Shown: positions 2,730 through 14,251, counted from the first letter of the stretch. The stretch: DNA of 14,251 bases from Candidatus Hermodarchaeota archaeon (GCA_016839365.1 JAEOUH010000077.1:1-14251); one strand, 5' to 3'. Program-made: numbers and translations. Notes: generated from the letters alone by a model not told the origin.

Positions 2730-3953
2730 TCAGATGATATATTTTGGAAGTTTTAAATCAAGATCAGAAATTCGAGTTTTAAGAGTTGAGGGAGTATGAG
2801 TTTCGAAATAGAGAGCTTTGATGAACTCATCTGTGAGATTGGCTTCCTGAGCTGCCTTATAGAACCCCCGGACCAACCACGCCCCTACCAGGTAGGTGTA
2901 TCCGTAGGGTCCCCAAATAGAATCAGTCATAAAAGGGATACGAGCCTCAGCGTATTCAGTTTCATAAGCACCCATATCTTTGAGATAATTGACGACTTCG
3001 GTTTCGCTGCGTTGTTCTTGTTGAATCATAACAAGGGCATTGATTCCAACAGCTCGTCGTAATTGCATCAAATGGGTGGAAACCGTTTCGGGTTTCGTTA
3101 ATGGTCGGATTGAACTTAGTATATCTGTTCCAGCCTCAGCTAAACCTTCCGCGATTGTACATTCAGGAGTGTTAATGATGGCGATAGCCGATTCAAGGTT
3201 GTGCGTTCCGCTCTGGTACCCAGACTCCTGTTGAACTAGTTGGGTTTGATGCCCTGGATAGGTTTCATGGGTTACCCATTTCCAAAGAGTATACTTGCTT
3301 CGAGGAAGTGCGATGTTAATTTCTATGATTGCTCTGTAATTCCCCTGATAATGGTTATATGCACTCCATGGGGCTACTTCGACGGCGCGAAATTCGACAC
3401 CTTCCTGCTCTGGAAGTGTGAAAAGCAGCTTCTGAGTAGCCTCCCGAGCTTCCATAGCCACCTTCTCTGCTAACGGAATGATTTCAGCCCCCTTTGTCAT
3501 TGCTCGCTTTCGCCATCGAGTTGCCATAGAGGTCAGATCACCGGTCAAAACTTCATTTCGAAGGGCCCGAGAAGCTTGTTCTGTTAACTCATCAATGCGT
3601 TCGCTGGAAATCGTTACGACATCAACATCCAATCCAATATTTACTCGTTCTTGAAATGCCACGGGATCCTCTAGCCCATAGTGTACAAGAAGTTTCAAAG
3701 CATCCGATTGACGCAGCAGATAAGACCGGCGTGGCTCATCGCGGATTTGTTTTTTGACATTGACTTGAAATCGGCTAATTAATCTTAGCAAACCGTCGGG
3801 GTCAACCACAGATTTTTCAGGCTTTAGTTCTGAAGGACCAAAATAGCTGTCGACGATAATAGTATCAGGTCCAATCTCCTGCTTGAGAAAATAATCAATT
3901 TGGAATCCGATATAGATGTAAGTTTCACCTATTTCAGAAAGGCTCTGTGTCAA
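2730..3953 (-). CDS. DUF885-like putative zinc metallopeptidase
   Basis: HETYPGHQTQ, IAEGLAE and YGYTYLVG segments match the DUF885 pattern HE.xPGH..Q / EG.A / Y.xG. The TTG start overlaps the end of the upstream GTPase by 20 bp. Confidence 0.7.
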   Translation of the reverse strand: MTQSLSEIGETYIYIGFQIDYFLKQEIGPDTIIVDSYFGPSELKPEKSVVDPDGLLRLISRFQVNVKKQIRDEPRRSYLLRQSDALKLLVHYGLEDPVAFQERVNIGLDVDVVTISSERIDELTEQASRALRNEVLTGDLTSMATRWRKRAMTKGAEIIPLAEKVAMEAREATQKLLFTLPEQEGVEFRAVEVAPWSAYNHYQGNYRAIIEINIALPRSKYTLWKWVTHETYPGHQTQLVQQESGYQSGTHNLESAIAIINTPECTIAEGLAEAGTDILSSIRPLTKPETVSTHLMQLRRAVGINALVMIQQEQRSETEVVNYLKDMGAYETEYAEARIPFMTDSIWGPYGYTYLVGAWLVRGFYKAAQEANLTDEFIKALYFETHTPSTLKTRISDLDLKLPKYII

Positions 3954-4545
3954 CGCTTTTCGCCTCGGGAAAGAGCTTATCCATTAACTGCGTGGCTAAT
4001 TCTTGGAACGCCTCATTGACGTTGCGACCATCTAAAGCACTGGTTTCGTAATACTTTCCTTGAATTCGATCAGTAGCCTGTTTTGCCGCATATTCGGAAA
4101 CCTCGCGATCGTGTTTTAGATCAACCTTATTTGCTAGCACAACGCGCACGAAATCGTCCCCAAGGATAGCTTTGACTTCATCTAACCACTTGGTTTCAAT
4201 CGCAGCAGCCGAAGAAGCACGGGTTGTGTCAAATACAAAAATTACGGCATTGGATCCGGTGTAGTAGCGCTGGCGGAGAGGTTGCAATCGTTCTTGACCA
4301 CCCGTATCAAATAGCTGTAATTTCAGTTTTCGCCCCCTTACATCGACTATCTTGGTCACAATGTTGACTCCAATGCTTGGTTTGTAATCATGGTCGAATT
4401 TATTTTCAGCAAATCGGCGAATTAAGCTAGTTTTACCAACTCCCCAATCACCAACAATGACAACTTTGACGACATAACCAGCTTTGGGTGGTTTCTCTAT
4501 TTCAATCGTAATTGATTCAGCGCTGGAATTAGAGATGTCCTTCAC
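3934..4545 (-). CDS. Rab-like small GTPase (Ras superfamily; Asgard eukaryotic signature protein)
   Basis: G1 GDWGVGKT, G2 YKPSIG, G3 DTGGQE, G4 NKVD, G5 ETSAL. RabF-like segments IGVNI, KLQLF and YYTGS. No C-terminal Cys. Confidence 0.92.
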   Translation of the reverse strand: MKDISNSSAESITIEIEKPPKAGYVVKVVIVGDWGVGKTSLIRRFAENKFDHDYKPSIGVNIVTKIVDVRGRKLKLQLFDTGGQERLQPLRQRYYTGSNAVIFVFDTTRASSAAAIETKWLDEVKAILGDDFVRVVLANKVDLKHDREVSEYAAKQATDRIQGKYYETSALDGRNVNEAFQELATQLMDKLFPEAKSVDTEPF

Positions 4546-5327: not shown

Positions 5328-7022
5328 GTGGAGGGAATATACTTGACTCTAACCAAAGCTGATAAAATCGTTGTAACGTGCGGCTTACCCTATGCAAACG
5401 GTACAGCTCATATCGGTCATCTGCGCACCTATATTCCCGGTGATGCCTACGTAAGATACCTGAAACGCTATGGCTATGATGTGGTATTCTTTTGTGGATC
5501 CGACGCGCATGGAGCACCCATTGAACTTGCAGCAGAGCAAGCTGGTGTCTCACCTCAAAAGTTAATTGAAAAATACCACGCACACTTTGAAAAAATCTTT
5601 AGAAAATTAAATATTGGCGTTGATCTGTACGGGAATACAGAGGCCCCCTACCATTACAAACGCGCTCAAACCATTATCCGTACCCTCGAGGAGAATGGAT
5701 ACGTTGAAGCGCGTGATGTAGCTTTGCCATATTGTAATACCTGTCAGACATTCCTCGCTGACCGCTTCCTCGTTGGCACTTGCCCTTATTGTGGAGCGAT
5801 AGCTCGTGGAGATGAATGTGACCAAGGGTGTCAACGCTACCTTGATGCTGACCAGTTGATCAACCCCCGCTGTGTCACCTGTGGATCACCAGCCGTCAAA
5901 CGGAACGCCCGACACCATTTCTTTAAGCTCTCAATGTTCACTGATTTTCTTACGAAATTTAATAAAAGATTGAAAGGTACCGCATTAGCTCGAAATTACG
6001 CTCTGGGATGGATTCGGCAGGGACTAAAGGATTGGGGCATCTCCCGTGATTTGAAATGGGGAATCCCCTATCCGGGCGATGAGGATTTGGTTCTCTACGT
6101 ATGGGCTGAAAACTATGCAGGCTACATCTCATTTACTGAGGAATGGGCCCGGCAAACTGGAGTGGATTGGGAAGACTATTGGATTCGAGATGGGAAAATC
6201 ATCAATTTCATCGGTGCAGATATCGTATACCACCATGCAGTCTTCTGGCCTGCAATTCTCAAAGGAGTGAACTACAATACGGCCTATGCAATCGTTGCTA
6301 GTGGCATGGTCAAGGTTGAAGGGCATGGCCTCTCCAAGAGTCGCGGCTTCGTAATCGATATCGAAGAAGATATCATCAAACAGGGAATCGATTTAGATGC
6401 TGTGCGATACTACATCCTTTCATACACAGGATATACGAAGGACCTGGATTTTATTTGGAAGGACTTTCAAATCAGAGTGAATAATGAACTTGTCGGCATT
6501 CTGGGTAACTATGCCTATCGTGTTCTCCTGTTCATTCACAAACACTTCAAAAAAATCCCTCAAGGAACCCTAACAGATGAGGTCACCAGCCAGATTCGTA
6601 ATACCGTTGAAGCAATCGACAAAACATTTCATAGATTTCGATTTAAAGAAGCTGCTGATGCTGCGATGCTCCTTGCGTCGTTTGGGAATACGCTCTTCCA
6701 ACAGAGTGAACCATGGAAAACGATCAAAGAAGAAAGAGACCGTGCTCAATTTGATCTATATCAGTGCCTCCAAGTATTGAAAGCCATTACGATTCTAATC
6801 GAACCTGTTATGCCAGCAATCTCAGAAAGGATTTGGCAACAACTTGGGCAGGATGGAAACATCCATGAAGTGAAGGTGGAAGAGTGTACAGAACCACTTG
6901 TTCCAGGCACAAAACTGCCAAATCCAGAAGCGCTATTCACGAAGATAGCCGACGAAACTGTTGAAGCATTAACCTCCAGATTGAACCAACGTATTGAATC
7001 TGCTAGGGCAAAAGCAAAGTAG
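5328..7022 (+). CDS. metG: Methionine--tRNA ligase (no C-terminal tRNA-binding domain)
   Basis: LPYANG..HIGH, GSDAHG, four CxxC-type zinc-knuckle pairs, WGISRD..WG, G.DI..HH..FWPA and KMSKS-like GLSKS. The true start may be TTG at 5343, after GGAGG at 5330-5334. Confidence 0.97.
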   Translation: MEGIYLTLTKADKIVVTCGLPYANGTAHIGHLRTYIPGDAYVRYLKRYGYDVVFFCGSDAHGAPIELAAEQAGVSPQKLIEKYHAHFEKIFRKLNIGVDLYGNTEAPYHYKRAQTIIRTLEENGYVEARDVALPYCNTCQTFLADRFLVGTCPYCGAIARGDECDQGCQRYLDADQLINPRCVTCGSPAVKRNARHHFFKLSMFTDFLTKFNKRLKGTALARNYALGWIRQGLKDWGISRDLKWGIPYPGDEDLVLYVWAENYAGYISFTEEWARQTGVDWEDYWIRDGKIINFIGADIVYHHAVFWPAILKGVNYNTAYAIVASGMVKVEGHGLSKSRGFVIDIEEDIIKQGIDLDAVRYYILSYTGYTKDLDFIWKDFQIRVNNELVGILGNYAYRVLLFIHKHFKKIPQGTLTDEVTSQIRNTVEAIDKTFHRFRFKEAADAAMLLASFGNTLFQQSEPWKTIKEERDRAQFDLYQCLQVLKAITILIEPVMPAISERIWQQLGQDGNIHEVKVEECTEPLVPGTKLPNPEALFTKIADETVEALTSRLNQRIESARAKAK

Positions 7023-7028
7023 CTCTAT

Positions 7029-7135
7029 TCAGAAGCAAAATGTTGCCCGTTCTACAATTGAATAATTTCTTAGCTAATGGTTCAAACAACCTCTTATTAT
7101 GCAACTCTAATCAAAACTTGAAATGGCACAATTTG
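7029..7135 (+). repeat. Repeat copy A (A/C type) containing dif-like core GGTTCAAACAA-CCTCTTA-TTATGCAACTC at 7079-7107
   Basis: Ungapped match to 10120-10226 (91/107 identical by manual count). The core is shared with 8279-8307 and 11259-11286. Confidence 0.9.
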
Positions 7136-7187
7136 TCGTGATGAATAGAAAAACACAGCACTCAAGAGGCTTTTAGCCGGCAAAGAA

Positions 7188-8123
7188 CTAACTCGTTTTG
7201 TAAAGGTCTGTGCTCAAGTATTTTAGCCCTGAATCGTTTAGCAATGTGACTACTGTAGCCTTTGGTCCTAATGTTTTCGCGATCCTAATGGCTGCTACAA
7301 CATTGGCACCTGATGAAGTGCCTGCGAAGAGTCCTTCCTCTCGTGCTAAGCGTTGAGCCATTACCTTGGCTTCCTGTGTGGAAACTTGTATTATCTCACC
7401 AATCAAACTGGAATTCCACAAAGGAGGTATAAACCCAATACCGATTCCATCGATACCATGAGCCCCTCTGCTTCCACCAGACAAAACAGGCGATTCTTTA
7501 GGCTCAACGGCTACTATTTTCACATCTGGATTATGCTTCTTCAAAACTATCGCGGTTCCAGTGAGAGATCCCGCCGTCCCAACGACTTGTACATAGGCAT
7601 TAACCTTTCCCTCTGTTTGCTCCCAAATTTCTTCACCGAGAGCAAAATACCCGGAGATCTGGTCTTGGTTATGTAGTTGATTTGTCCAGTAAGTCTCTGG
7701 GGTTTCACTAATTTTGCGCGCCTTTTCAATCATTGCGTCAATTAATTCCTTAGTTATCCCACGTCCATGGCTCGGGATAACTGTTACTTCTGCACCTAAA
7801 GCCTGCATATGATCCAGTTTATCGCGACTAAAGGCATCCGAAGAGATTATTCGAAGTCGATACCCTTTCGCTGCACAAATAAATGCCAGCGATGTACCAG
7901 TGCTTCCCCCTGTATATTCAACTACGGTTCCACCCGGTTTCAACCGACCATCTTGTTCGGCTTTATCAATCATTGCTTGAGCCATACGATCTTTCATGCT
8001 CCCAGTTGGGTTTTCCCACTCTAACTTCACAAGCACACGGGCATACCCCTGCGGAACCACTTGCTGCAACTCTACCAACGAAGTATTCCCAATTGCGGCT
8101 AGAATATTTGTTCCTATCTTCAC
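7188..8123 (-). CDS. cysK: PLP-dependent cysteine synthase family protein
   Basis: IGNT.LV.L, KLE..NPTGSMKDR (PLP Lys), GTAGSLTG, H.I.GIG and GTSSGAN. Start reassigned to GTG at 8123 (311 aa), because the extra 54 codons in the ORF track are the antisense of repeat B. Confidence 0.88.
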   Translation of the reverse strand: MKIGTNILAAIGNTSLVELQQVVPQGYARVLVKLEWENPTGSMKDRMAQAMIDKAEQDGRLKPGGTVVEYTGGSTGTSLAFICAAKGYRLRIISSDAFSRDKLDHMQALGAEVTVIPSHGRGITKELIDAMIEKARKISETPETYWTNQLHNQDQISGYFALGEEIWEQTEGKVNAYVQVVGTAGSLTGTAIVLKKHNPDVKIVAVEPKESPVLSGGSRGAHGIDGIGIGFIPPLWNSSLIGEIIQVSTQEAKVMAQRLAREEGLFAGTSSGANVVAAIRIAKTLGPKATVVTLLNDSGLKYLSTDLYKTS

Positions 8124-8129
8124 GCAGCC

Positions 8130-8250
8130 AACCAGCTTCCTCAAAAATAAGTTTCCTAAACCTAAATATCTTATTCCAGATAAAGCAGCTGAGAAACTTA
8201 GAATCGACCTTAGCCAACGCATTGAATCTGGGTGAGTAAGAACCAAGTAA
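8130..8250 (+). pseudogene. Degenerate copy of the metG 3' end (remnant B)
   Basis: Translates to KFPKPKYL---IPDKAAEKLRIDLSQRIESG*VRTK*, versus MetRS KLPNPEALFTKIADETVEALTSRLNQRIESARAKAK*. The terminal stop is at the same position; premature TGA at 8233-8235. Confidence 0.85.
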
Positions 8251-8307
8251 CGCCGTTCAACAAAATTTCTTAGCCTGTTGTTCAAACAACCTCTGAGTAT
8301 GCATTAA
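8178..8307 (+). repeat. Repeat copy B (B/D type) with dif-like core TGTTCAAACAA-CCTCTGA-GTATGCATTAA at 8279-8307
   Basis: 8178-8294 aligns ungapped to 11158-11274 (96/117 identical by manual count). Confidence 0.9.
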
Positions 8308-8332
8308 ATGAAGACATGAAAATCTTTGAATT

Positions 8333-8908
8333 TCAGAATTCTTTACCTTTCTGATAGACTTGTTTGAGGTAATTCGTTCGGGTTGCATCATCAACAGCAG
8401 CGACTGAATAAAGGAAGAGGAAGTCAACTTCTTTAATTCCAGATTCTGTGAGTGACATTCCCAAGATGTTCTTCATAGAACCCCCCAAACCGGTAGCCTG
8501 GTAATAGGTTTCGGGGTTTCCAGTAGTAAAGATGTAGAGACCTTTCTTTTGCGTGAGAAGACCGATCATTCCTGTCTGATCAGCTTTCCAAGCAAAGCCA
8601 AATGAGAACACACGTTGAACCCAGCCTTCTAAGATTGCTGGGATGAACCATCCGAGAGCAGGACTGATAAATACTAATGCTTCAGCGTTAGCCAGTCTTT
8701 CTTGTTGCTTTTGTACTTCTTTAGGCATTGGTTTTCCCGCAAATTGCCCAAAGTCTTCAAGTTGGATGCTGGGATTGAATTTTTCAGCGTATAAATCCAC
8801 AACATCGAAGGTATGACCACCATCCTTGAGGCCCTTTGTGAAGGATTCGAGAACAGCGTGATTAAACGACTTAGGATTTGGATGCGCATAAACAACTAAC
8901 ACGTTCAT
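8333..8908 (-). CDS. NAD(P)H-dependent flavodoxin-fold oxidoreductase (Flavodoxin_2, MdaB/KefF-like)
   Basis: MNVLVVYAHPNPKSFN, V.DLY...FNP, P...W..PA.L.GW..RVF..GFA and TTG motifs. Confidence 0.9.
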   Translation of the reverse strand: MNVLVVYAHPNPKSFNHAVLESFTKGLKDGGHTFDVVDLYAEKFNPSIQLEDFGQFAGKPMPKEVQKQQERLANAEALVFISPALGWFIPAILEGWVQRVFSFGFAWKADQTGMIGLLTQKKGLYIFTTGNPETYYQATGLGGSMKNILGMSLTESGIKEVDFLFLYSVAAVDDATRTNYLKQVYQKGKEF

Positions 8909-9010
8909 GAAAAAACCACCACAATTTTTCGGTTAATGGCATCTCAACCTAAATAACTGTAAGCTTTCCACAATGTAGAAAGACATGAACTTTTTATTAT
9001 TAAGTGGTGA

Positions 9011-9529
9011 TTGAAATTGCAGATTGACCCTCAATTATTACAAACCATTTCGATATTAGTAGCTATTAGTAGTATTATTGTTGCATTCATTATTGGTGTG
9101 CGCTCGATTCGTAACTTCACTGTCTCTCGTAAGGCATCAGTGTTCATCAGTTATCAGACTCAAGCTTACAACCATCAGTTTCTCAGAAATATGACAGAAA
9201 TTATCAACGAGTGGTCATGGAAGAATTTCGAAGATTTCTGGCAAAAATACGGACCACAAACTAACCCAGAATCGTATGCCAAGTTCATTTCTGTTAGTGG
9301 GTTTTATGAGGGAATGGCAAGACTTCTTAGAAAGAATATCATCGATATTGATTTGATGCCCGTAGTCATGTCTATCGGGATCATTATGTTTTGGGATAAA
9401 ATCAAACCTATGTCAGCACAGATGGGCAAATATTTAGGCATCACGGAAGGGATAGATTTAGCTCAATTTCTCTATGATAGGGTGAAAAGTCGACAACACG
9501 AAACAAAAAATCACACTGAATTTGTATAA
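9011..9529 (+). CDS. Hypothetical membrane-anchored protein (DUF4760-like), paralogue 1
   Basis: N-terminal TM helix and WSWK...FW.KYGP..NP motif shared with the next ORF. The start may be TTG at 9017, 6 nt after GGTGA. The family name is from memory. Confidence 0.75.
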   Translation: MKLQIDPQLLQTISILVAISSIIVAFIIGVRSIRNFTVSRKASVFISYQTQAYNHQFLRNMTEIINEWSWKNFEDFWQKYGPQTNPESYAKFISVSGFYEGMARLLRKNIIDIDLMPVVMSIGIIMFWDKIKPMSAQMGKYLGITEGIDLAQFLYDRVKSRQHETKNHTEFV

Positions 9530-9655
9530 CTCAGTATTTCCCATAAAAGATGATTCGGTATCCATGAACACAGATATGATGTATGTCGTAGCATGAGATT
9601 TTTTCAGTTAGAATGACATAGATTCTTGTCTATACATTTACGGTGCGTGAGTTCG

Positions 9656-10156
9656 ATGCAGTTGCCCATTACTCTCGATCAGATTGGTATATTTATCGCT
9701 GCAATCAGCGTTGTAGTCGGTGTAATCTTAGGACTGCAATCTGCGAAGGATTGGTCCAAGGACCGCAATGCGAGTCTTTTCCTCCAGTATCAGCTTCAAG
9801 CCTTCAACACTGAATTCATGGAGAATCTAATCGAAATTAACTCATTATGGTCATGGAAGGATAATATGGAGTTTTGGACAAAGTATGGACCCGAATCGAA
9901 CCCGAAGAAGTTTGCAAAATTTTCTGTAGTTGGCACGGTTTTTGATAGTATGGGGGTTTTGCTAAAGCGGAAATACATACCTGTGGACATGGTACCGGAA
10001 TTGATGATTATTGGGATAATTTCTTTTTGGGAGAAAGTTGCACCTATTTCCACTCAACTGAGTATAGACATGCAACGGCCTCATGCTTTTGAGAATATCG
10101 AGTATCTTGTTAATGAAGCTCGGAAGCGAGATGCAACCCGTTCTAGAATTAAATAA
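9656..10156 (+). CDS. Hypothetical membrane-anchored protein (DUF4760-like), paralogue 2
   Basis: Colinear similarity to 9011-9529 (WSWKDNMEFWTKYGPESNP, MG.LL....I..D..P, IGIISFWEK). ATG at 9656 preferred, with TATA-like TATACATTTA at 9631-9640. Confidence 0.78.
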   Translation: MQLPITLDQIGIFIAAISVVVGVILGLQSAKDWSKDRNASLFLQYQLQAFNTEFMENLIEINSLWSWKDNMEFWTKYGPESNPKKFAKFSVVGTVFDSMGVLLKRKYIPVDMVPELMIIGIISFWEKVAPISTQLSIDMQRPHAFENIEYLVNEARKRDATRSRIK

Positions 10157-10226
10157 TTTCTTAACAAATGGTTCAAACAACCCCTGATTATGCAACTCTT
10201 ATCAAAACAAGAAATGCCACAATTTG
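10120..10226 (+). repeat. Repeat copy C (A/C type) with dif-like core GGTTCAAACAA-CCCCTGA-TTATGCAACTC at 10170-10198
   Basis: Ungapped match to 7029-7135 at offset 3091. Confidence 0.9.
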
Positions 10227-10547
10227 GCTTCAATATGTAATGTTATGGAACCATTCCCGTTAGTGGTAGTGCCCACCACGGAATCGCATCTAAGATGAAG
10301 GAATGGTGGATTCTCGAACTTGCCGATCATCCTATTATGAATAGTGGATAACACAAACAAGAGCTATTTACACACACTATTCCTTTCCTTGAATCCATCT
10401 AACTCAACCCTCTTCATCTGTTCCATCACTTTTTTCGAATAAATTAACCTCTGTTTTTTTATGGCTCATTGCGCCTAAAGGATTTTATACGCTCTAAATC
10501 CTATCTTAACGGGTTTTGCATAACTTAATGGAATGGAGAAAAAGATT

Positions 10548-10994
10548 ATGGGATTATTTGGTCGATTTAAAGCCCCAAAAGCGACAATCTCAGTAATGTT
10601 GAATAAGGATACATACAGCCTCAAAGAGCCCCTAACAGGGACCGTTAATGTGTCATCATCTGAAGAATTTGACGCCGATGAAGTTCGTCTTGAAATCTGG
10701 GTCAACGAATGGACCAAAGCGACCGAGAAGCAGGGTACGAAAGAAAAACCGATTACAGTAACCGCTCAACAAAACAGCGTACTCCATCAAAGCAAGAATT
10801 CCATCGGAGGGCAAATGCAATTCACCGACGGTTTTAGCGACAGTATTGACTTCAGTATCCATTTACCATCAGGAGTTCCACCCACCTATCGAAGTCAAAA
10901 TGCCCGAAATACCTGGATGATGAAAGGCGTAATTGCGGTTAAAGGCCGACCCGATGTCACTAGCCACGACATGGAAGTCGTAATAACCTACTAG
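10548..10994 (+). CDS. Arrestin-N/Spo0M/Vps26-like beta-sandwich protein
   Basis: 'ISV.LNKDTY...E.LTG.V.V.S', 'FSIHLP..VPPTY' and 'W.MKG.I...GRPD' follow the arrestin-N fold pattern. Start is ATG 10548 (MGLFGRF) or 10533. Confidence 0.72.
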   Translation: MGLFGRFKAPKATISVMLNKDTYSLKEPLTGTVNVSSSEEFDADEVRLEIWVNEWTKATEKQGTKEKPITVTAQQNSVLHQSKNSIGGQMQFTDGFSDSIDFSIHLPSGVPPTYRSQNARNTWMMKGVIAVKGRPDVTSHDMEVVITY

Positions 10995-11019
10995 TGAACC
11001 CTCATGTTGTATCATTACA

Positions 11020-11230
11020 GGGCAATTACTGTGTAGGTGAAGGCAGCCATCGAAGTGAGCAGTTCACCTCTTCTAAAATAACTGAAAACTGATGAAATAA
11101 GGATCCCGTTCCCCCTAGTATTGAATTATCCAAGCCTACTGCATTTTTCCAGAGTCTAGATGATGCAGTTGAGGAAGTTGGAACGGGCCTTAACCAACGC
11201 ATTGAATCTGGGCGGGTAAGAGCCAAGTTA
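11020..11230 (+). pseudogene. Degenerate copy of the metG 3' end (remnant D)
   Basis: Translates to DPVPPSIELSKPTAFFQSL-DDAVEEVGTGLNQRIESGRVRAK, versus MetRS EPLVPGTKLPNPEALFTKIADETVEALTSRLNQRIESARAKAK. Weaker frameshifted DNA similarity upstream (GGCAA..ACT...AGG.TG.A..CA.CCAT.GAAGTGA). Confidence 0.87.
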
Positions 11231-11286
11231 CACCATTCAACAAAATTTCTGATGCTGTTGTTTAAATAACCTCTATTATGCTAACA
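11158..11286 (+). repeat. Repeat copy D (B/D type) with 28-bp dif-like core TGTTTAAATAA-CCTCTA-TTATGCTAACA at 11259-11286
   Basis: Matches copy B at offset 2980. The core is an 11-6-11 imperfect palindrome with 8/11 symmetric arm positions. Confidence 0.88.
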
Positions 11287-11463
11287 CCTAGGCTGTTGAA
11301 CTAGGCGAGTGTTGTGGTGGACGACCCGTGTTCAAATCGTGGGTTGTTTAGAATTAGTTAACACTGTTTATTAGAAATATCAGATTTTTAAGGTTCAAAG
11401 GAGAAGGGGGTCTTATTCATCCTTTGTAGAAGGATGGATGGGAAAGTCTAGGAGATTACGTAT

Positions 11464-12360
11464 TTGGTAATAAAACAGAGAAAGTTGAGCTTTCTTCTAG
11501 TTGCAATTGCAGTGTTCTGTGTGGTGTCGATGTTGTCGCCGTTCCCGGATAGGGTGCGGGCGATGACAGTGATTACGGATAATTTCAATGACATGGACTA
11601 TGCGGGGTGGGATACCTACGGATATATATTGAATTGGACGACATCCCCCCCTAAGACGTATCTTGCGGGTTCAGCGAATTTTTCAGCTGCGGATCAGACC
11701 TTGAAGGTCACGGGACCCCTGGGCAATTACACATATTCGTCCTGGAATAATGCATACATCGAGAGCTCAGTGAGCTTTGGTCAGTGGAGCTTCGATTTGT
11801 ATGTAGTCAATACAACACTCGGTATGGGGTATGTACGCCTTATGGCGGACCACTATTATCCAGCCGAATATTATTCTGCTATTCCCGGTCCGTACATGAA
11901 TAATAGTTACGAAATTTGGTGCTACACCCGTAATTTGACTTCGTCGATTGGTTCATTCGTTGACCGGCCGATGATTACCCTTGAAAGATGGTTAACAGGT
12001 TCTGGGGATATTCGTGCGTCATATTCTGTTGGAACACCTTCGGATACTTGGACGAATTGCTGGGTTCACTTCGATGTGATTCGGAATACTACGGGGCACA
12101 TCATGGTGTACATCAACAGCACCCTCCGCATAGCAATAGGAGACAATCTTAATCCCATACCTGGGTACTTCGTGTTTTCTGGACAGAGTGGTTGGGCCAT
12201 TGATAGCGTGGTCATCTCGGGAATTTCCGCCATCCCCACCATCCCCACCATCCCTACTGAACCACCACCGGACTTCACGCTACCCTTGATTGCCATCATT
12301 GCCATCGAGCTCATCGTCATCATCGTCCTCTCCATCTTATACTTCCGGCGACGATCATAA
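11464..12360 (+). CDS. Secreted, C-terminally membrane-anchored surface protein (possible ConA/LamG-like beta-sandwich)
   Basis: Basic plus hydrophobic signal peptide ending near VRA; aromatic, beta-rich body (W.HFDV.R...G.I.VYIN); several NxS/T sequons; (IPT)3 linker; TM helix and RRRS tail. Confidence 0.8.
   Translation: MVIKQRKLSFLLVAIAVFCVVSMLSPFPDRVRAMTVITDNFNDMDYAGWDTYGYILNWTTSPPKTYLAGSANFSAADQTLKVTGPLGNYTYSSWNNAYIESSVSFGQWSFDLYVVNTTLGMGYVRLMADHYYPAEYYSAIPGPYMNNSYEIWCYTRNLTSSIGSFVDRPMITLERWLTGSGDIRASYSVGTPSDTWTNCWVHFDVIRNTTGHIMVYINSTLRIAIGDNLNPIPGYFVFSGQSGWAIDSVVISGISAIPTIPTIPTEPPPDFTLPLIAIIAIELIVIIVLSILYFRRRS
12230..12256 (+). repeat. 9-bp tandem repeat (CCATCCCCA)x3 encoding an IPT linker
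   Basis: CCATCCCCA CCATCCCCA CCATCCCTA. Confidence 0.8.
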
Positions 12361-12361
12361 T

Positions 12362-12403
12362 CAGGTGCGTGTAGGGCACCTGCCCTACCCCTTTCCTTTT
12401 TTT
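12362..12403 (+). terminator. Hairpin plus oligo-T putative terminator
   Basis: GTAGGGCA/TGCCCTAC (12371-12388), with alternative stem CAGGTGC/GCACCTG, followed by CTTTCCTTTTTTT immediately after the stop codon. Confidence 0.55.
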
Positions 12404-12617
12404 CAGAAGGAACGTTATTTAGCGCTCGCATGAGCTATGTAATATCTCCGACACCATTGGACCAAGCTTATGTTGGGTTACCTTTGTCATCTTTGGGTCA
12501 TCAGGGATTGTGTTCTCGCTTGTACAGGGATATTCAGTCAATCTTCGGGTGCATAACTTTTTACTTCTTCAATTATTTCTACACTCATAGCAATTCACTT
12601 AGGTAGGTGGATTACGA

Positions 12618-12652
12618 GCATAAGGGGTGTGTGTGCTTGAACAACAACATCA
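12618..12652 (-). repeat. Possible inverted, degenerate copy (E) of the dif-like core
   Basis: Reverse complement TGATGTTGTTGTTCAAGCAC-ACACACCCC-TTATGC versus copy D TGATGCTGTTGTTTAAATAA-CCTCTA-TTATGC. The spacer is 9 bp. Confidence 0.4.
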
Positions 12653-12701
12653 TTTCTTATCCCCGTTTTGCACCCCTAGCTAGTGTAAAGTGGTGAATAC
12701 T

Positions 12702-14251
12702 ATGGTTGGCGTTGATCCTTCAATACCCCTATCTGATATAACGAAGCTTCCTGCAAAACTCCAGCGGAAGCTTGACGCCCATGGAATTAATGATCTCGCA
12801 GATCTTTTTCTGGCAGAGACCAAACTACAGGACGCCGTCACATTAGCGACCAACACGGATCTTACCATTCGTGAAGCTCTTGAAGCCCGACAGCTTGGTC
12901 GGCGATATTTAGAAACCATTTTAGCAGAGATCACCGCCAAGCGCAAGGTCGAATCGTTGGGATTATTGTGGAAGATTCATTGGCTGTTAGGAGCTGTACC
13001 TAATGGAAATCTCCGAAACGAGCTTATCGCGCTTGAGGCTTCAGCCATTGCCACGATTCTTGAGACTTTAGAAACCACCGAGGCGGTGACGATAGAACAA
13101 ATTCTCCAGGTACTGCTTCACCGTCTCCTCATTGTTCCGAAAGCGACAATGAAGGCGGAGTTGACACAACTTGTGGAGTTTGCCGAGAAGTTTCAGCGGA
13201 GCTCCTTGCTCGCCTATCAAACAACTAAAGCAAAGGATTCGATGATGGCATTAGCCGATGAGGATGATCCCACAAAGCAGGTTGTACAGATACGAAAACT
13301 CACAACTCATTGGAAGAACCTTCTTAAGACAATGCAAGACCGCAGCCAGGAACGAGGAACCGTAATTATATCAGCACTCCTGTCAACTGATGACCTAAGA
13401 GTACTAGATATCAGCGAACGGCATTTGCAAGAACGCCTCCAACAAACCATGTCAACAAAGAAACTTCGACAATCACAGCTAAAGCACATCACGACTGCAA
13501 TGAATGCCATGTTTGATCTCCGCGATGCCTACTCTACCGCCAAACTAGCCACGCGGGCGAGCCAGATATGGTTTGAACTGGCACAAGGCAAAACCAGCAA
13601 GGCACTTGGAGATGATTTATTACGTAGTCTACGATTTGCACGTACAGCGATTTTCAATTATCGTGCACTTGATGATTTGAACGGAGCGGTCAAGCAGCTT
13701 GATTATATTATCCACGTACTTGGTGAAATCCCATTCGAACCCGCTGAACCCCTTGAGGAAGCCGTTACAAGTGCCTTCCAAACGTTAATCCGAACTATAC
13801 CACTCCTGGACCGTCCTGCAGACCAAGAATTCATTCTTCGAATCTCAAAACGGCTAGGCAGCCTCATAACGAGGTTGATGCCCAAAATCGCAGCTCCTGA
13901 AGCCCAGTCTGCTTTGGCAAAACTCCAAATCGAATTCCAACAAACAGCACTAAAACAGCTGAAGCAACTTGGGGCAACACCTGAGACCAATCAACCACTC
14001 ACCCAGGAGCTCATAGAAGCTCAATTGCGCCTAATCGAAGTTACCTCAGAAGATGAAAGAGACGCCCTCCTACGTGCAGCCGCTGAATATGCAACCCAAC
14101 TAATACCTGAGACCCACCCAACGCCGAAAATCGACGAGAAAAATCTTGAAATTATTTCCCGCATTGTACAGCAACTAGCTCAGCGACCCAAGGAAACTTT
14201 GAGTGATTCAGCACAACACCTTATGGAGAAAAGTCACAAACTCAACGAACA
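12702..14251 (+). CDS. Large hypothetical protein with an N-terminal helix-hairpin-helix-like segment and all-alpha body; runs off the window
   Basis: ATG at 12702 after GGTGA (12692-12696). Manually read as open for 516 codons (MVGVDPSIPLSDITKLPAKLQRKLDAHGINDLADLF...). Absent from the ORF track because there is no stop in the window. Confidence 0.85.
   Translation, partial: MVGVDPSIPLSDITKLPAKLQRKLDAHGINDLADLFLAETKLQDAVTLATNTDLTIREALEARQLGRRYLETILAEITAKRKVESLGLLWKIHWLLGAVPNGNLRNELIALEASAIATILETLETTEAVTIEQILQVLLHRLLIVPKATMKAELTQLVEFAEKFQRSSLLAYQTTKAKDSMMALADEDDPTKQVVQIRKLTTHWKNLLKTMQDRSQERGTVIISALLSTDDLRVLDISERHLQERLQQTMSTKKLRQSQLKHITTAMNAMFDLRDAYSTAKLATRASQIWFELAQGKTSKALGDDLLRSLRFARTAIFNYRALDDLNGAVKQLDYIIHVLGEIPFEPAEPLEEAVTSAFQTLIRTIPLLDRPADQEFILRISKRLGSLITRLMPKIAAPEAQSALAKLQIEFQQTALKQLKQLGATPETNQPLTQELIEAQLRLIEVTSEDERDALLRAAAEYATQLIPETHPTPKIDEKNLEIISRIVQQLAQRPKETLSDSAQHLMEKSHKLNE

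Follow-up and report, generated by a model that had tools for sequence, protein, structure and literature searches.

The stretch of DNA described here is a contig of 14,251 nucleotides (C57), called the window in what follows, which belongs to a metagenome-assembled genome (MAG) of a Candidatus Hermodarchaeota archaeon (2.2 Mb, 84% complete). Its genes for a Rab-like GTPase and an arrestin-N-like protein, together with the NCBI labels of related contigs ("Candidatus Odinarchaeota" and "Promethearchaeota"), assign it to the Asgard archaea. It contains metG, the gene of methionyl-tRNA synthetase, followed by a row of small gene cassettes bounded by short repeated sites, and then by the 5' part of a large conserved gene, whose product is 1029 amino acids long in the related genome G007. 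We argue that the spot between metG and the 1029-aa gene is a chromosomal attachment site, which gains and loses small cassettes by conservative site-specific recombination; we put the probability of this reading at about 0.6. Judging from the sequences, this appears to be a real cassette-accretion locus, integron-like but mechanistically distinct, on which the recombinase acts in trans, and we infer the mobility of the cassettes from the comparison of these sequences.

We located metG in 40 related genomes, compared the region downstream of it within the same genus and a sister genus (MAGs 72–91% complete), and mapped the proteins of the window onto these regions. Orthologues of metG are present in 41 of the 41 genomes searched. 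The order that is conserved in the relatives is Rab-like GTPase gene, metG, 1029-aa gene, and the orthologue of the latter directly follows metG in G002, G003, G015 and G018, which represent both genera. The gap between the stop codon of metG and its neighbour is 59 nt in G002 and close to that in G003, which are empty sites of the same genus, and 86–87 nt in the sister genus (G015, G018). When the site is occupied, the gap is 304 nt (G011), 1209 nt (G010), 1739 nt (G007) or 2597 nt (G009), the longest being those of the present genome (5671 nt) and of G012 (7126 nt). The cargo differs among genomes: it includes a flavodoxin, a PHO4 transporter, an acyltransferase, an M66-like protein with secreted paralogues, a beta-lactamase-fold protein, an old-yellow-enzyme homologue, a leucine-rich-repeat (LRR) protein, a P-type ATPase and others, and, in the metagenome contig L198, a Na/H exchanger and a HAD hydrolase. 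The cassettes are 0.6–3.4 kb long and each carries one to three ordinary accessory genes.

The boundaries of these inserts are precise. The left flank of the attachment site consists of the 3' end of metG and about 40 nt of downstream spacer. We tabulated 26 junctions, 18 with cassette left ends and 8 with the native right flank. In the former, the sequence TTTCTTA is followed by a conserved cassette left end of about 30 nt, which starts with GCCTGTTGTTCAAAC in most cases. In the latter, what comes after the same 7 nt is the native flank in front of the large gene; the empty sites of G002 and G003 make up two of these 8 junctions, and in them the metG spacer (the left half) and the junction are fused directly to this flank. 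A half-site of about 8 nt, on the left of the 7 nt, is common to all junction classes, and homology breaks at the same 7 nt in all 26 junctions. Since empty, left, internal and right junctions have in common a run of about 15 nt whose last 7 are TTTCTTA, the exchange must take place within this run, in or beside TTTCTTA. Variable cargo downstream of metG, with breakpoints at the cores of the repeated sites, is what the original prediction, made from the window alone, had anticipated, and it is seen both in the related genomes and in the population variants described below.

In the window, four direct copies of a unit of about 45 nt start at positions 7064, 8264, 10155 and 11244. The spacings of 1200, 1891 and 1089 nt that had been claimed for them are exact, according to a repeat search, an alignment and a profile search. 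Site A (attL, 7064..7103, + strand) has its junction at 7066-7072 and then a cassette left end of a variant form ("type I"); site B (8264..8303, +) has its junction at 8266-8272, followed by the canonical "type II" left end with a 6-2-6 palindrome; site C (10155..10194, +) has its junction at 10157-10163 and then, like site A, a left end of type I. Site D (11244..11283, +; nhmmer E 2e-8) consists of a degenerate junction and a degenerate type II left end. The last one, site E (attR, 12653..12689, +), is a half-site, whose junction (12653-12659) is followed by the native right flank; this flank is conserved before the large gene in every genome, including those with an empty site. Site E had been suspected to be inverted, which is not the case: it is a direct, terminal half-site. 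Indeed all five sites of the window and all array sites of the relatives are direct, and the cassette genes are found in both orientations.

These sites delimit four cassettes. The first one, K1 (7073..8272, 1200 nt), comprises a left end, a CysK-like gene (7188 to about 8123, − strand), a copy of the metG tail (8175-8250) and the junction. The second, K2 (8273..10163, 1891 nt, GC 0.393), carries a Flavodoxin_2/FMN reductase gene and two DUF4760 genes, without any metG tail. The third, K3 (10164..11252, 1089 nt), carries an arrestin-like gene, a right-end module (11017-11154) also present in G012 and L198, a copy of the metG tail (11155-11230) and, at 11246-11252, the degenerate junction TTTCTGA. 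The fourth, K4 (11253..12659, 1407 nt), carries the gene of a 298-aa anchored protein (11464-12360), a right end (12547-12652) and the junction at 12653-12659. The GC contents of K2 (0.39) and K3 (0.42) are below those of the flanks (0.445–0.47). Three families of repeats are detected in the window: D1, in which 8175-8294 resembles 11155-11274 (82%); D2, in which 7029-7135 resembles 10120-10226 (85%) and which corresponds to an extended flank shared by sites A and C; and D3, in which the end of metG (6984-7031) resembles 8212-8259 (71%) and 11192-11239 (77%).

A profile built from the four cores of the window was used to scan the rest of this genome, other genome contigs, viral contigs and metagenomes. 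In the 2.2 Mb of its own genome, the genome scan that the original prediction had called for recovers only the four cores of the metG locus (E 1e-8 to 1e-11), no further core being found below E ~4, and a control with the reversed pattern gave 0 matches. The full profile is matched by contigs of this genus only. Cores are found in 7 of the 15 genomes of the genus versus 0 of the 4 genomes of the sister genus. In the metagenomes, 6 of 22 contigs are true matches, all of them chromosomal arrays without an integrase. With a loose core pattern, 17 matches are obtained in viral contigs and at least 118 in genome contigs, almost all of which are due to chance.

A strict pattern search detects the same left end outside the window in G011:C2, in G003:C145 and in contigs 11 and 12 of G014. 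The copy on contig 11 of G014 belongs to the last cassette before the large gene, hence to the metG locus, and the other three are at different loci. The insert in G011:C2 is about 4 kb long and carries a P-type ATPase; it starts with a decayed tail-like piece and a core, and its right end, which is homologous to the one of K4 (12547-12652), is closed by the 7 nt. The counterpart of this place in the genome studied here (contig C46, ~3390-3424) is uninterrupted, which means that the site is empty. The presence of the same ends at other loci indicates that the cassette ends are not tied to metG. The idea that modules had integrated "just downstream of metG" is too narrow, as insertions are also seen at internal and terminal sites of the arrays and at other loci.

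The locus also varies within natural populations. In public sequencing runs, which we sampled as assembled (Logan) contigs, a 5.9-kb stretch of the locus is present in 20 runs of 9 studies (marine sediment, mangrove, soil). In some of these runs, contigs do not cover every part of the stretch, to which we attach no weight. Independent contigs bridge site A (record 1 of run X1 and record 24 of run X7), site B (record 5 of X1, which covers 7717-10021) and site D (record 23 of X5 and record 30 of X7); the contigs that bridge these three sites come from four studies and show 0–5 differences. A third arrangement appears in 3 of 4 runs: what comes after the arrestin-like cassette is a metG tail and a core, and then a different cassette. 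Runs X1 and X5 have loose ends next to the terminal junction, at 12648: other DNA or another cassette is joined there. These observations show that the sites are polymorphic within natural populations.

The same contigs bear on the hypothesis that the array is an artefact of assembly or binning, a chimeric contig caused by the repeats. Several contigs of relatives do stop at or near repeats (G005, G008, G001, L196, L198), as such an artefact would produce. However, the independent contigs of different studies that bridge A, B and D rule it out for these sites, and at least 9 genomes or contigs, each assembled separately, have the same architecture, so that we regard this explanation as practically negligible. 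Regarding the assemblies of the relatives, many of them end near the repeats: G005:C59 and G008:C199 end shortly past metG (by a few tens of bases), G001:C18 breaks at the second core, L196 and L198 end inside a tail copy, and L206 and L213 are also fragmented. Fragmentation induced by the repeats fits these breaks, and the arrays are probably under-counted in MAGs.

One alternative is that the island is variable but not mobile. In that case, the unit of about 45 nt would have a regulatory or terminator-like role in the 3' flank of metG and would have multiplied by local duplication, and the differences in cargo would result from homologous recombination and deletion between the conserved flanking genes. 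Such a view agrees with the fact that no mobility intermediate was observed, that the one cassette shared between genomes is about as diverged as the flanks, and that mosaic cassette ends suggest homologous exchange between ends. However, unrelated cargo is bounded by the unit at three further loci, and the present genome has one of these in the empty state; the junction is nucleotide-precise in all the tabulated cases; the unit is not an intrinsic hairpin, has no T-run and matches no Rfam family; and the sister genus has both flanking genes without the unit. We consider this alternative improbable.

Several observations nevertheless weigh against site-specific gain and loss of cassettes, or are poorly accommodated by it. 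The arrestin-like cassette is shared with G007 (92.7% nucleotide identity over 792 nt, 98% amino-acid identity), where its neighbours are a flavodoxin cassette and the native flank instead of K2 and K4. This change of neighbours speaks for the gain and loss of single units, but the divergence of the cassette (92.7%) is about that of the flanks (~90%), which fits vertical descent of K3 with gains and losses around it. No cassette is found in two places at near-identity, and recent movement is deduced from presence and absence. There is no circular-cassette or excision junction in the public runs, a result which, given that only assembled contigs were searched, is uninformative. Between the metG stop codon and site A lies a 35-nt segment (7029..7063, +) that is not in the native spacer of the relatives; it is homologous to the right end of K2 (10120-10154), whose last 35 nt code for the C-terminal end of the second DUF4760 protein. 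This match is not accounted for by a simple exchange at the junction; the segment could be a scar left by a deleted cassette, or part of a longer "type I" site. Last, site-specific gain and loss does not account for the metG tail that some cassettes carry upstream of the exchange point.

These tails, which precede sites B and D in the window, are copies of the final ~100 nt of metG that have decayed. The tail copies found here and in G007, G012 and L198 are 53–139 nt long; they are 75–86% identical to each other, versus 63–75% to the resident tail of their own genome. The resident tails, for their part, follow the body of the gene: the identities of tail and body are 82 vs 88% between the window and G007, 87 vs 89% between G002 and G003, and 91 vs 94% between G001 and G005. 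The copy that precedes site B (remnant B) is only 63–76% identical to the resident tail of the closest relative. Since the tail copies resemble each other, the resident tails track the gene body and remnant B is distant, the tails are borne by the cassettes, and are not displaced resident tails. About half of the cassettes have no tail, yet their junction is the same. From these alignments, it appears that one family of cassette right ends carries a metG tail of ~100 nt, the exchange occurring to the right of the tail, at the junction.

A row of tail fragments of a target gene, interleaved with cargo after a housekeeping gene, is also what would be expected if each element brought a new metG 3' end and pushed the old tail and cargo downstream, by means of a DNA-cutting enzyme and break repair, as in the WHO homing-element model at yeast FBA1, which predicts a 5'/3' discordance of the target gene (PMC7282813). 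But no array contains an endonuclease gene, the metG tails of close relatives are as similar as the gene bodies, without 5'/3' discordance, remnant B is not the former tail of the lineage, and the tail-less half of the cassettes uses the same junction. Tail replacement of this kind is in our opinion very unlikely.

What sort of site is it? The original prediction described the locus as an integron-like variable locus without attC hairpins, and this is borne out: the arrays vary among relatives and the sites do not fold. Folding of 81-nt DNA at sites A–D (both strands for A and B) gives no attC-like hairpin, the energies being −2.7 to −4.0 kcal/mol with z-scores of 0.0 to +1.0, and 94–168 of 200 shuffled sequences fold as well. 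The ~45-nt unit contains no intrinsic hairpin and no T-run, and scanning the whole window against Rfam at E<=1 gives no match. The lack of a significant single-strand fold and of any Rfam family implies that the sites are not attC.

The sites had also been called "dif-like". That they are repeated and direct is correct; the dif-like palindrome is no better than chance, and the name is unproven. A dif site is defined by two inverted arms of ~11 nt around a spacer of 6–8 nt (PMC8371274). Two results weigh against a dif-type site here: among 11-(5–8)-11 arrangements, the best inverted repeats of sites A–D around the junction, with spacers of 6 or 8 nt, match at 8 of 11 positions, a score of at least 8/11 being reached by 123 of 500 shuffled 80-mers, and the empty attB has no dif-like symmetry at the junction. 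Besides, the cassette ends are found at at least 4 loci across the genus, not at one dif. In sites B and D, CAACA and its complement are placed symmetrically, three bases on either side of the 7 nt. The conserved block reaches about 30 nt into the cassette and includes the 6-2-6 palindrome; a block of this sort would suit an accessory or arm-type binding site.

As for the enzyme, the statement that the window contains no integrase or transposase holds: PF00589 has no match in the window, and there is no recombinase in any array. In the ~20 cassettes examined, several of whose cargo proteins have no family match, we found no recombinase, nuclease, replication or virion protein, and 218 kb of core-bearing contexts contain neither a PF00589 match nor a homologue of either tyrosine recombinase of this genome. 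Serine recombinases and Y1 (IS200-type) transposases were not found in the 84% of the genome that is available. This genome has two PF00589 genes.

The first of them codes for an Xer-like recombinase of 313 aa (contig C89:14993-15931; L001:1120-2061). The protein passes the cut-off of the NCBIfam XerA model (265.6 bits vs 220) and fails that of the integron-integrase model TIGR02249 (158.7 bits vs a cut-off of 265). Each of the 5 relatives that were checked has one strong match to this gene; 12 of the 15 genomes of the genus have it (E<=1e-20), against none of the 4 genomes of the sister genus, which have one weak, different PF00589 match only. Its distribution in the phylum is patchy (68 of 121 genomes at E<=1e-10). 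It is the only tyrosine recombinase that is conserved in the genus, and the sister-genus genomes in which it was not found also lack the sites, which is suggestive and makes it the leading, but unproven, candidate. It must be counted against this assignment that the link relies on one genus-level contrast, in MAGs that are 72–91% complete. To our knowledge, XerA is not known to act on such sites in any archaeon. In G014, a cassette end is located 17 kb from the Xer-like gene, and contig C89 of the present genome stops ~1.2 kb before the syntenic place.

The second gene codes for a tyrosine recombinase of 468 aa with a zinc-ribbon region (contig C42:28946-30349, −; L002:958-2364), which adjoins the gene of an MFS transporter. 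We rejected it as the enzyme of the cassettes, because it is strain-specific and not conserved in the genus; it is probably the integrase of a separate integrated element. The 1029-aa protein was also considered as a recombinase encoded by the platform itself, but it has no family lead, and its gene also adjoins metG in the cassette-free sister genus.

The existence of the 468-aa recombinase elsewhere in the genome has some weight in favor of another explanation, according to which the cassettes are the decayed leftovers of classical integrative elements (plasmids, proviruses or islands) that formerly had an integrase of their own and targeted the metG 3' flank. They would be similar to the cis-mobilisable elements that accretion leaves behind, and to move today they would require the integrase of an intact element outside these bins. 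Direct repeats that include a copy of the tail of the target gene are a hallmark of such elements, the first and last tail copies of L198 are identical over the 72 nt compared, as they would be after a recent classical integration, and MAGs often miss extrachromosomal elements. But in ~20 cassettes, at 4 loci and in at least 9 genomes or contigs, there is no fragment of an integrase and no replication or virion gene; the units are 0.6–3.4 kb long with a conserved left end at every internal boundary, which is unlike random decay; the metagenome core scan returned chromosomal arrays only; and the 468-aa recombinase is not conserved in the genus. We find this explanation doubtful, although it is the rival that we take most seriously.

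The mechanism that we favor, that of conservative site-specific recombination, would be the following. The cassettes, of 0.6–3.4 kb, are stacked in tandem, four of them in the window (7073-12659), and each has a left end of ~30 nt after the 7-nt junction, and a right end made of a short conserved half-site and the same 7 nt. As double-stranded DNA, they would form circles and insert again at whichever site of the array, beside metG or further along, and rarely at other loci. The recombinase would be encoded elsewhere, because no array encodes one. The most likely enzyme would be the single conserved Xer-like tyrosine recombinase of the genus, to which we give roughly one chance in three; it may be, alternatively, that the integrase of an unbinned helper element does the job. 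Thus, of the proposal that modules had integrated repeatedly downstream of metG by means of an XerA-like enzyme acting in trans, the repeated integration of recombinase-less modules is supported, and the role of XerA is plausible but unproven. The combined scenario, in which cassettes with a ~30-nt left end and a 7-nt core are shuffled among a few chromosomal sites by the Xer-like recombinase of the host, is possible but tentative. With the same reserve, it would amount to a second, hairpin-free cassette system of an Asgard genus, and to a chromosome-wide archaeal analogue of integrons and Xer-exploiting elements.

Archaeal integrons and integrase-less clusters of attC sites (CALINs) have been reported to be enriched in Asgard archaea (PMC9668308). 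The metG array is like them in that it is a chromosomal row of small, promoter-independent and functionally unrelated cassettes, each bounded by a repeated site, whose content varies between close relatives and which include no recombinase. It differs from them in that its sites have no attC hairpins and there is no IntI beside the array, both orientations of the genes are found, insertion is not confined to one attI-like end, and the conserved part is at the 5' (left) end of the cassette, the exchange occurring at a 7-nt double-strand core.

The integrative mobile elements exploiting Xer (IMEX) and the pdif modules of Acinetobacter (PMC5357621) are also recombinase-less modules with short bounding sites, presumably moved by the chromosomal recombinase, which accumulate in tandem at one chromosomal site in a host that encodes an Xer-family enzyme when the element encodes none. 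Unlike IMEX, the present system has no demonstrable 11-6-11 symmetry, and it uses at least 4 loci rather than a single dif; unlike pdif sites, which alternate in orientation (PMC5357621), all its sites are direct.

In islands that grow by tandem accretion at the 3' end of a gene, with cis-mobilisable remnants, and in the tRNA-linked islands built by tycheposons (bioRxiv 10.1101/2020.12.28.424599), successive integrations also push older inserts along, and nutrient, transport and redox genes also make up the cargo. In tycheposon-type islands and in islands with displaced target fragments (PMC4383910), the units are likewise separated by partial copies of the target gene. However, those elements encode an integrase or fragments of it, of which there is no trace here; their crossover is inside the gene, which it restores, whereas the exchange is here ~20 nt downstream of the metG stop codon; and the tail copies are here carried by the cassettes, half of which have none. 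The resemblance to the WHO elements (PMC7282813) is limited to the 3' fragments of a target gene that are lined up with cargo after a housekeeping gene: here there is no endonuclease and no discordance in metG, and the precise junction is also found in tail-less cassettes and at other loci. A miniature inverted-repeat transposable element (MITE) or another transposon was considered and set aside, the genome (84% complete) having no copies outside the metG locus, no serine recombinase and no Y1 transposase. The aloposons of Heimdallarchaeia are unrelated to the array. On the basis of these comparisons, the metG array looks like a variant of site-specific accretion of cassettes or islands, with a putative trans-acting recombinase.

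The genes that had been called between the sites are confirmed by a Pfam check. The resident metG (5328..7022, +) codes for a methionyl-tRNA synthetase of 564 aa (Pfam tRNA-synt_1g, 5.7e-134). The gene of K1 codes for a PALP/CysK-like PLP enzyme (Pfam PALP, 3.9e-68). As called, it spans 7188-8285 (−), with a TTG start and an N-terminal extension (8124-8285, −) that runs antisense through the metG-tail copy; this long N-terminus is probably not real, and the true start is probably near 8123. The antisense extension gave spurious "PALP" tblastn matches on the tail copies of other genomes. In K2, the Flavodoxin_2/FMN reductase gene is at 8333-8908 (−) and the DUF4760 membrane paralogues, which are 37% identical to each other, are at 9011-9529 (+) and 9626-10156 (+); these assignments are from Pfam, like that of the Arrestin_N/Spo0M-like gene of K3 (10533-10994, +). 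The 298-aa product of K4 (11464-12360) is a secreted or anchored surface protein, with a signal or anchor sequence and no family match. The cargo genes of the window have only distant paralogues elsewhere in the genome. A search of the assembly for SSU rRNA gave no match. The Arrestin_N/Spo0M-like protein, a "eukaryote-like" signature protein, is encoded by a cassette gene and belongs to the mobile accessory pool.

In the conserved flank, upstream of metG, there is a gene for a small GTPase of the Rab/Ras family (3934-4545, −). On the other side, the large open reading frame (12690..14251, +) is the right anchor of the locus and is outside the mobile DNA; it is the 5' part of the 1029-aa gene and continues on another contig of this genome, C88. 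A full-length copy is at L036:8406-11495. Searches of Pfam, NCBIfam, PDB sequences and the Atlas gave no lead for the 1029-aa protein. Its N-terminus resembles a helix-hairpin-helix, as judged by eye only.

What the metG locus illustrates is the precise and recurrent stacking of single accessory genes at defined chromosomal spots, without element-encoded integrases or integron-type hairpins. The short and defined ends of the cassettes make the system testable in vitro, and they are a potential site-specific insertion system for organisms that are hard to manipulate. If the Xer-like enzyme of the host does act on these sites, archaea would have their first example of Xer hijacking; the cassettes would be archaeal counterparts of the Xer-exploiting elements, supplying accessory transport, redox and surface genes to their hosts, and they would represent a new route of gene flow, which is invisible to integron finders and to finders of integrase-anchored islands.

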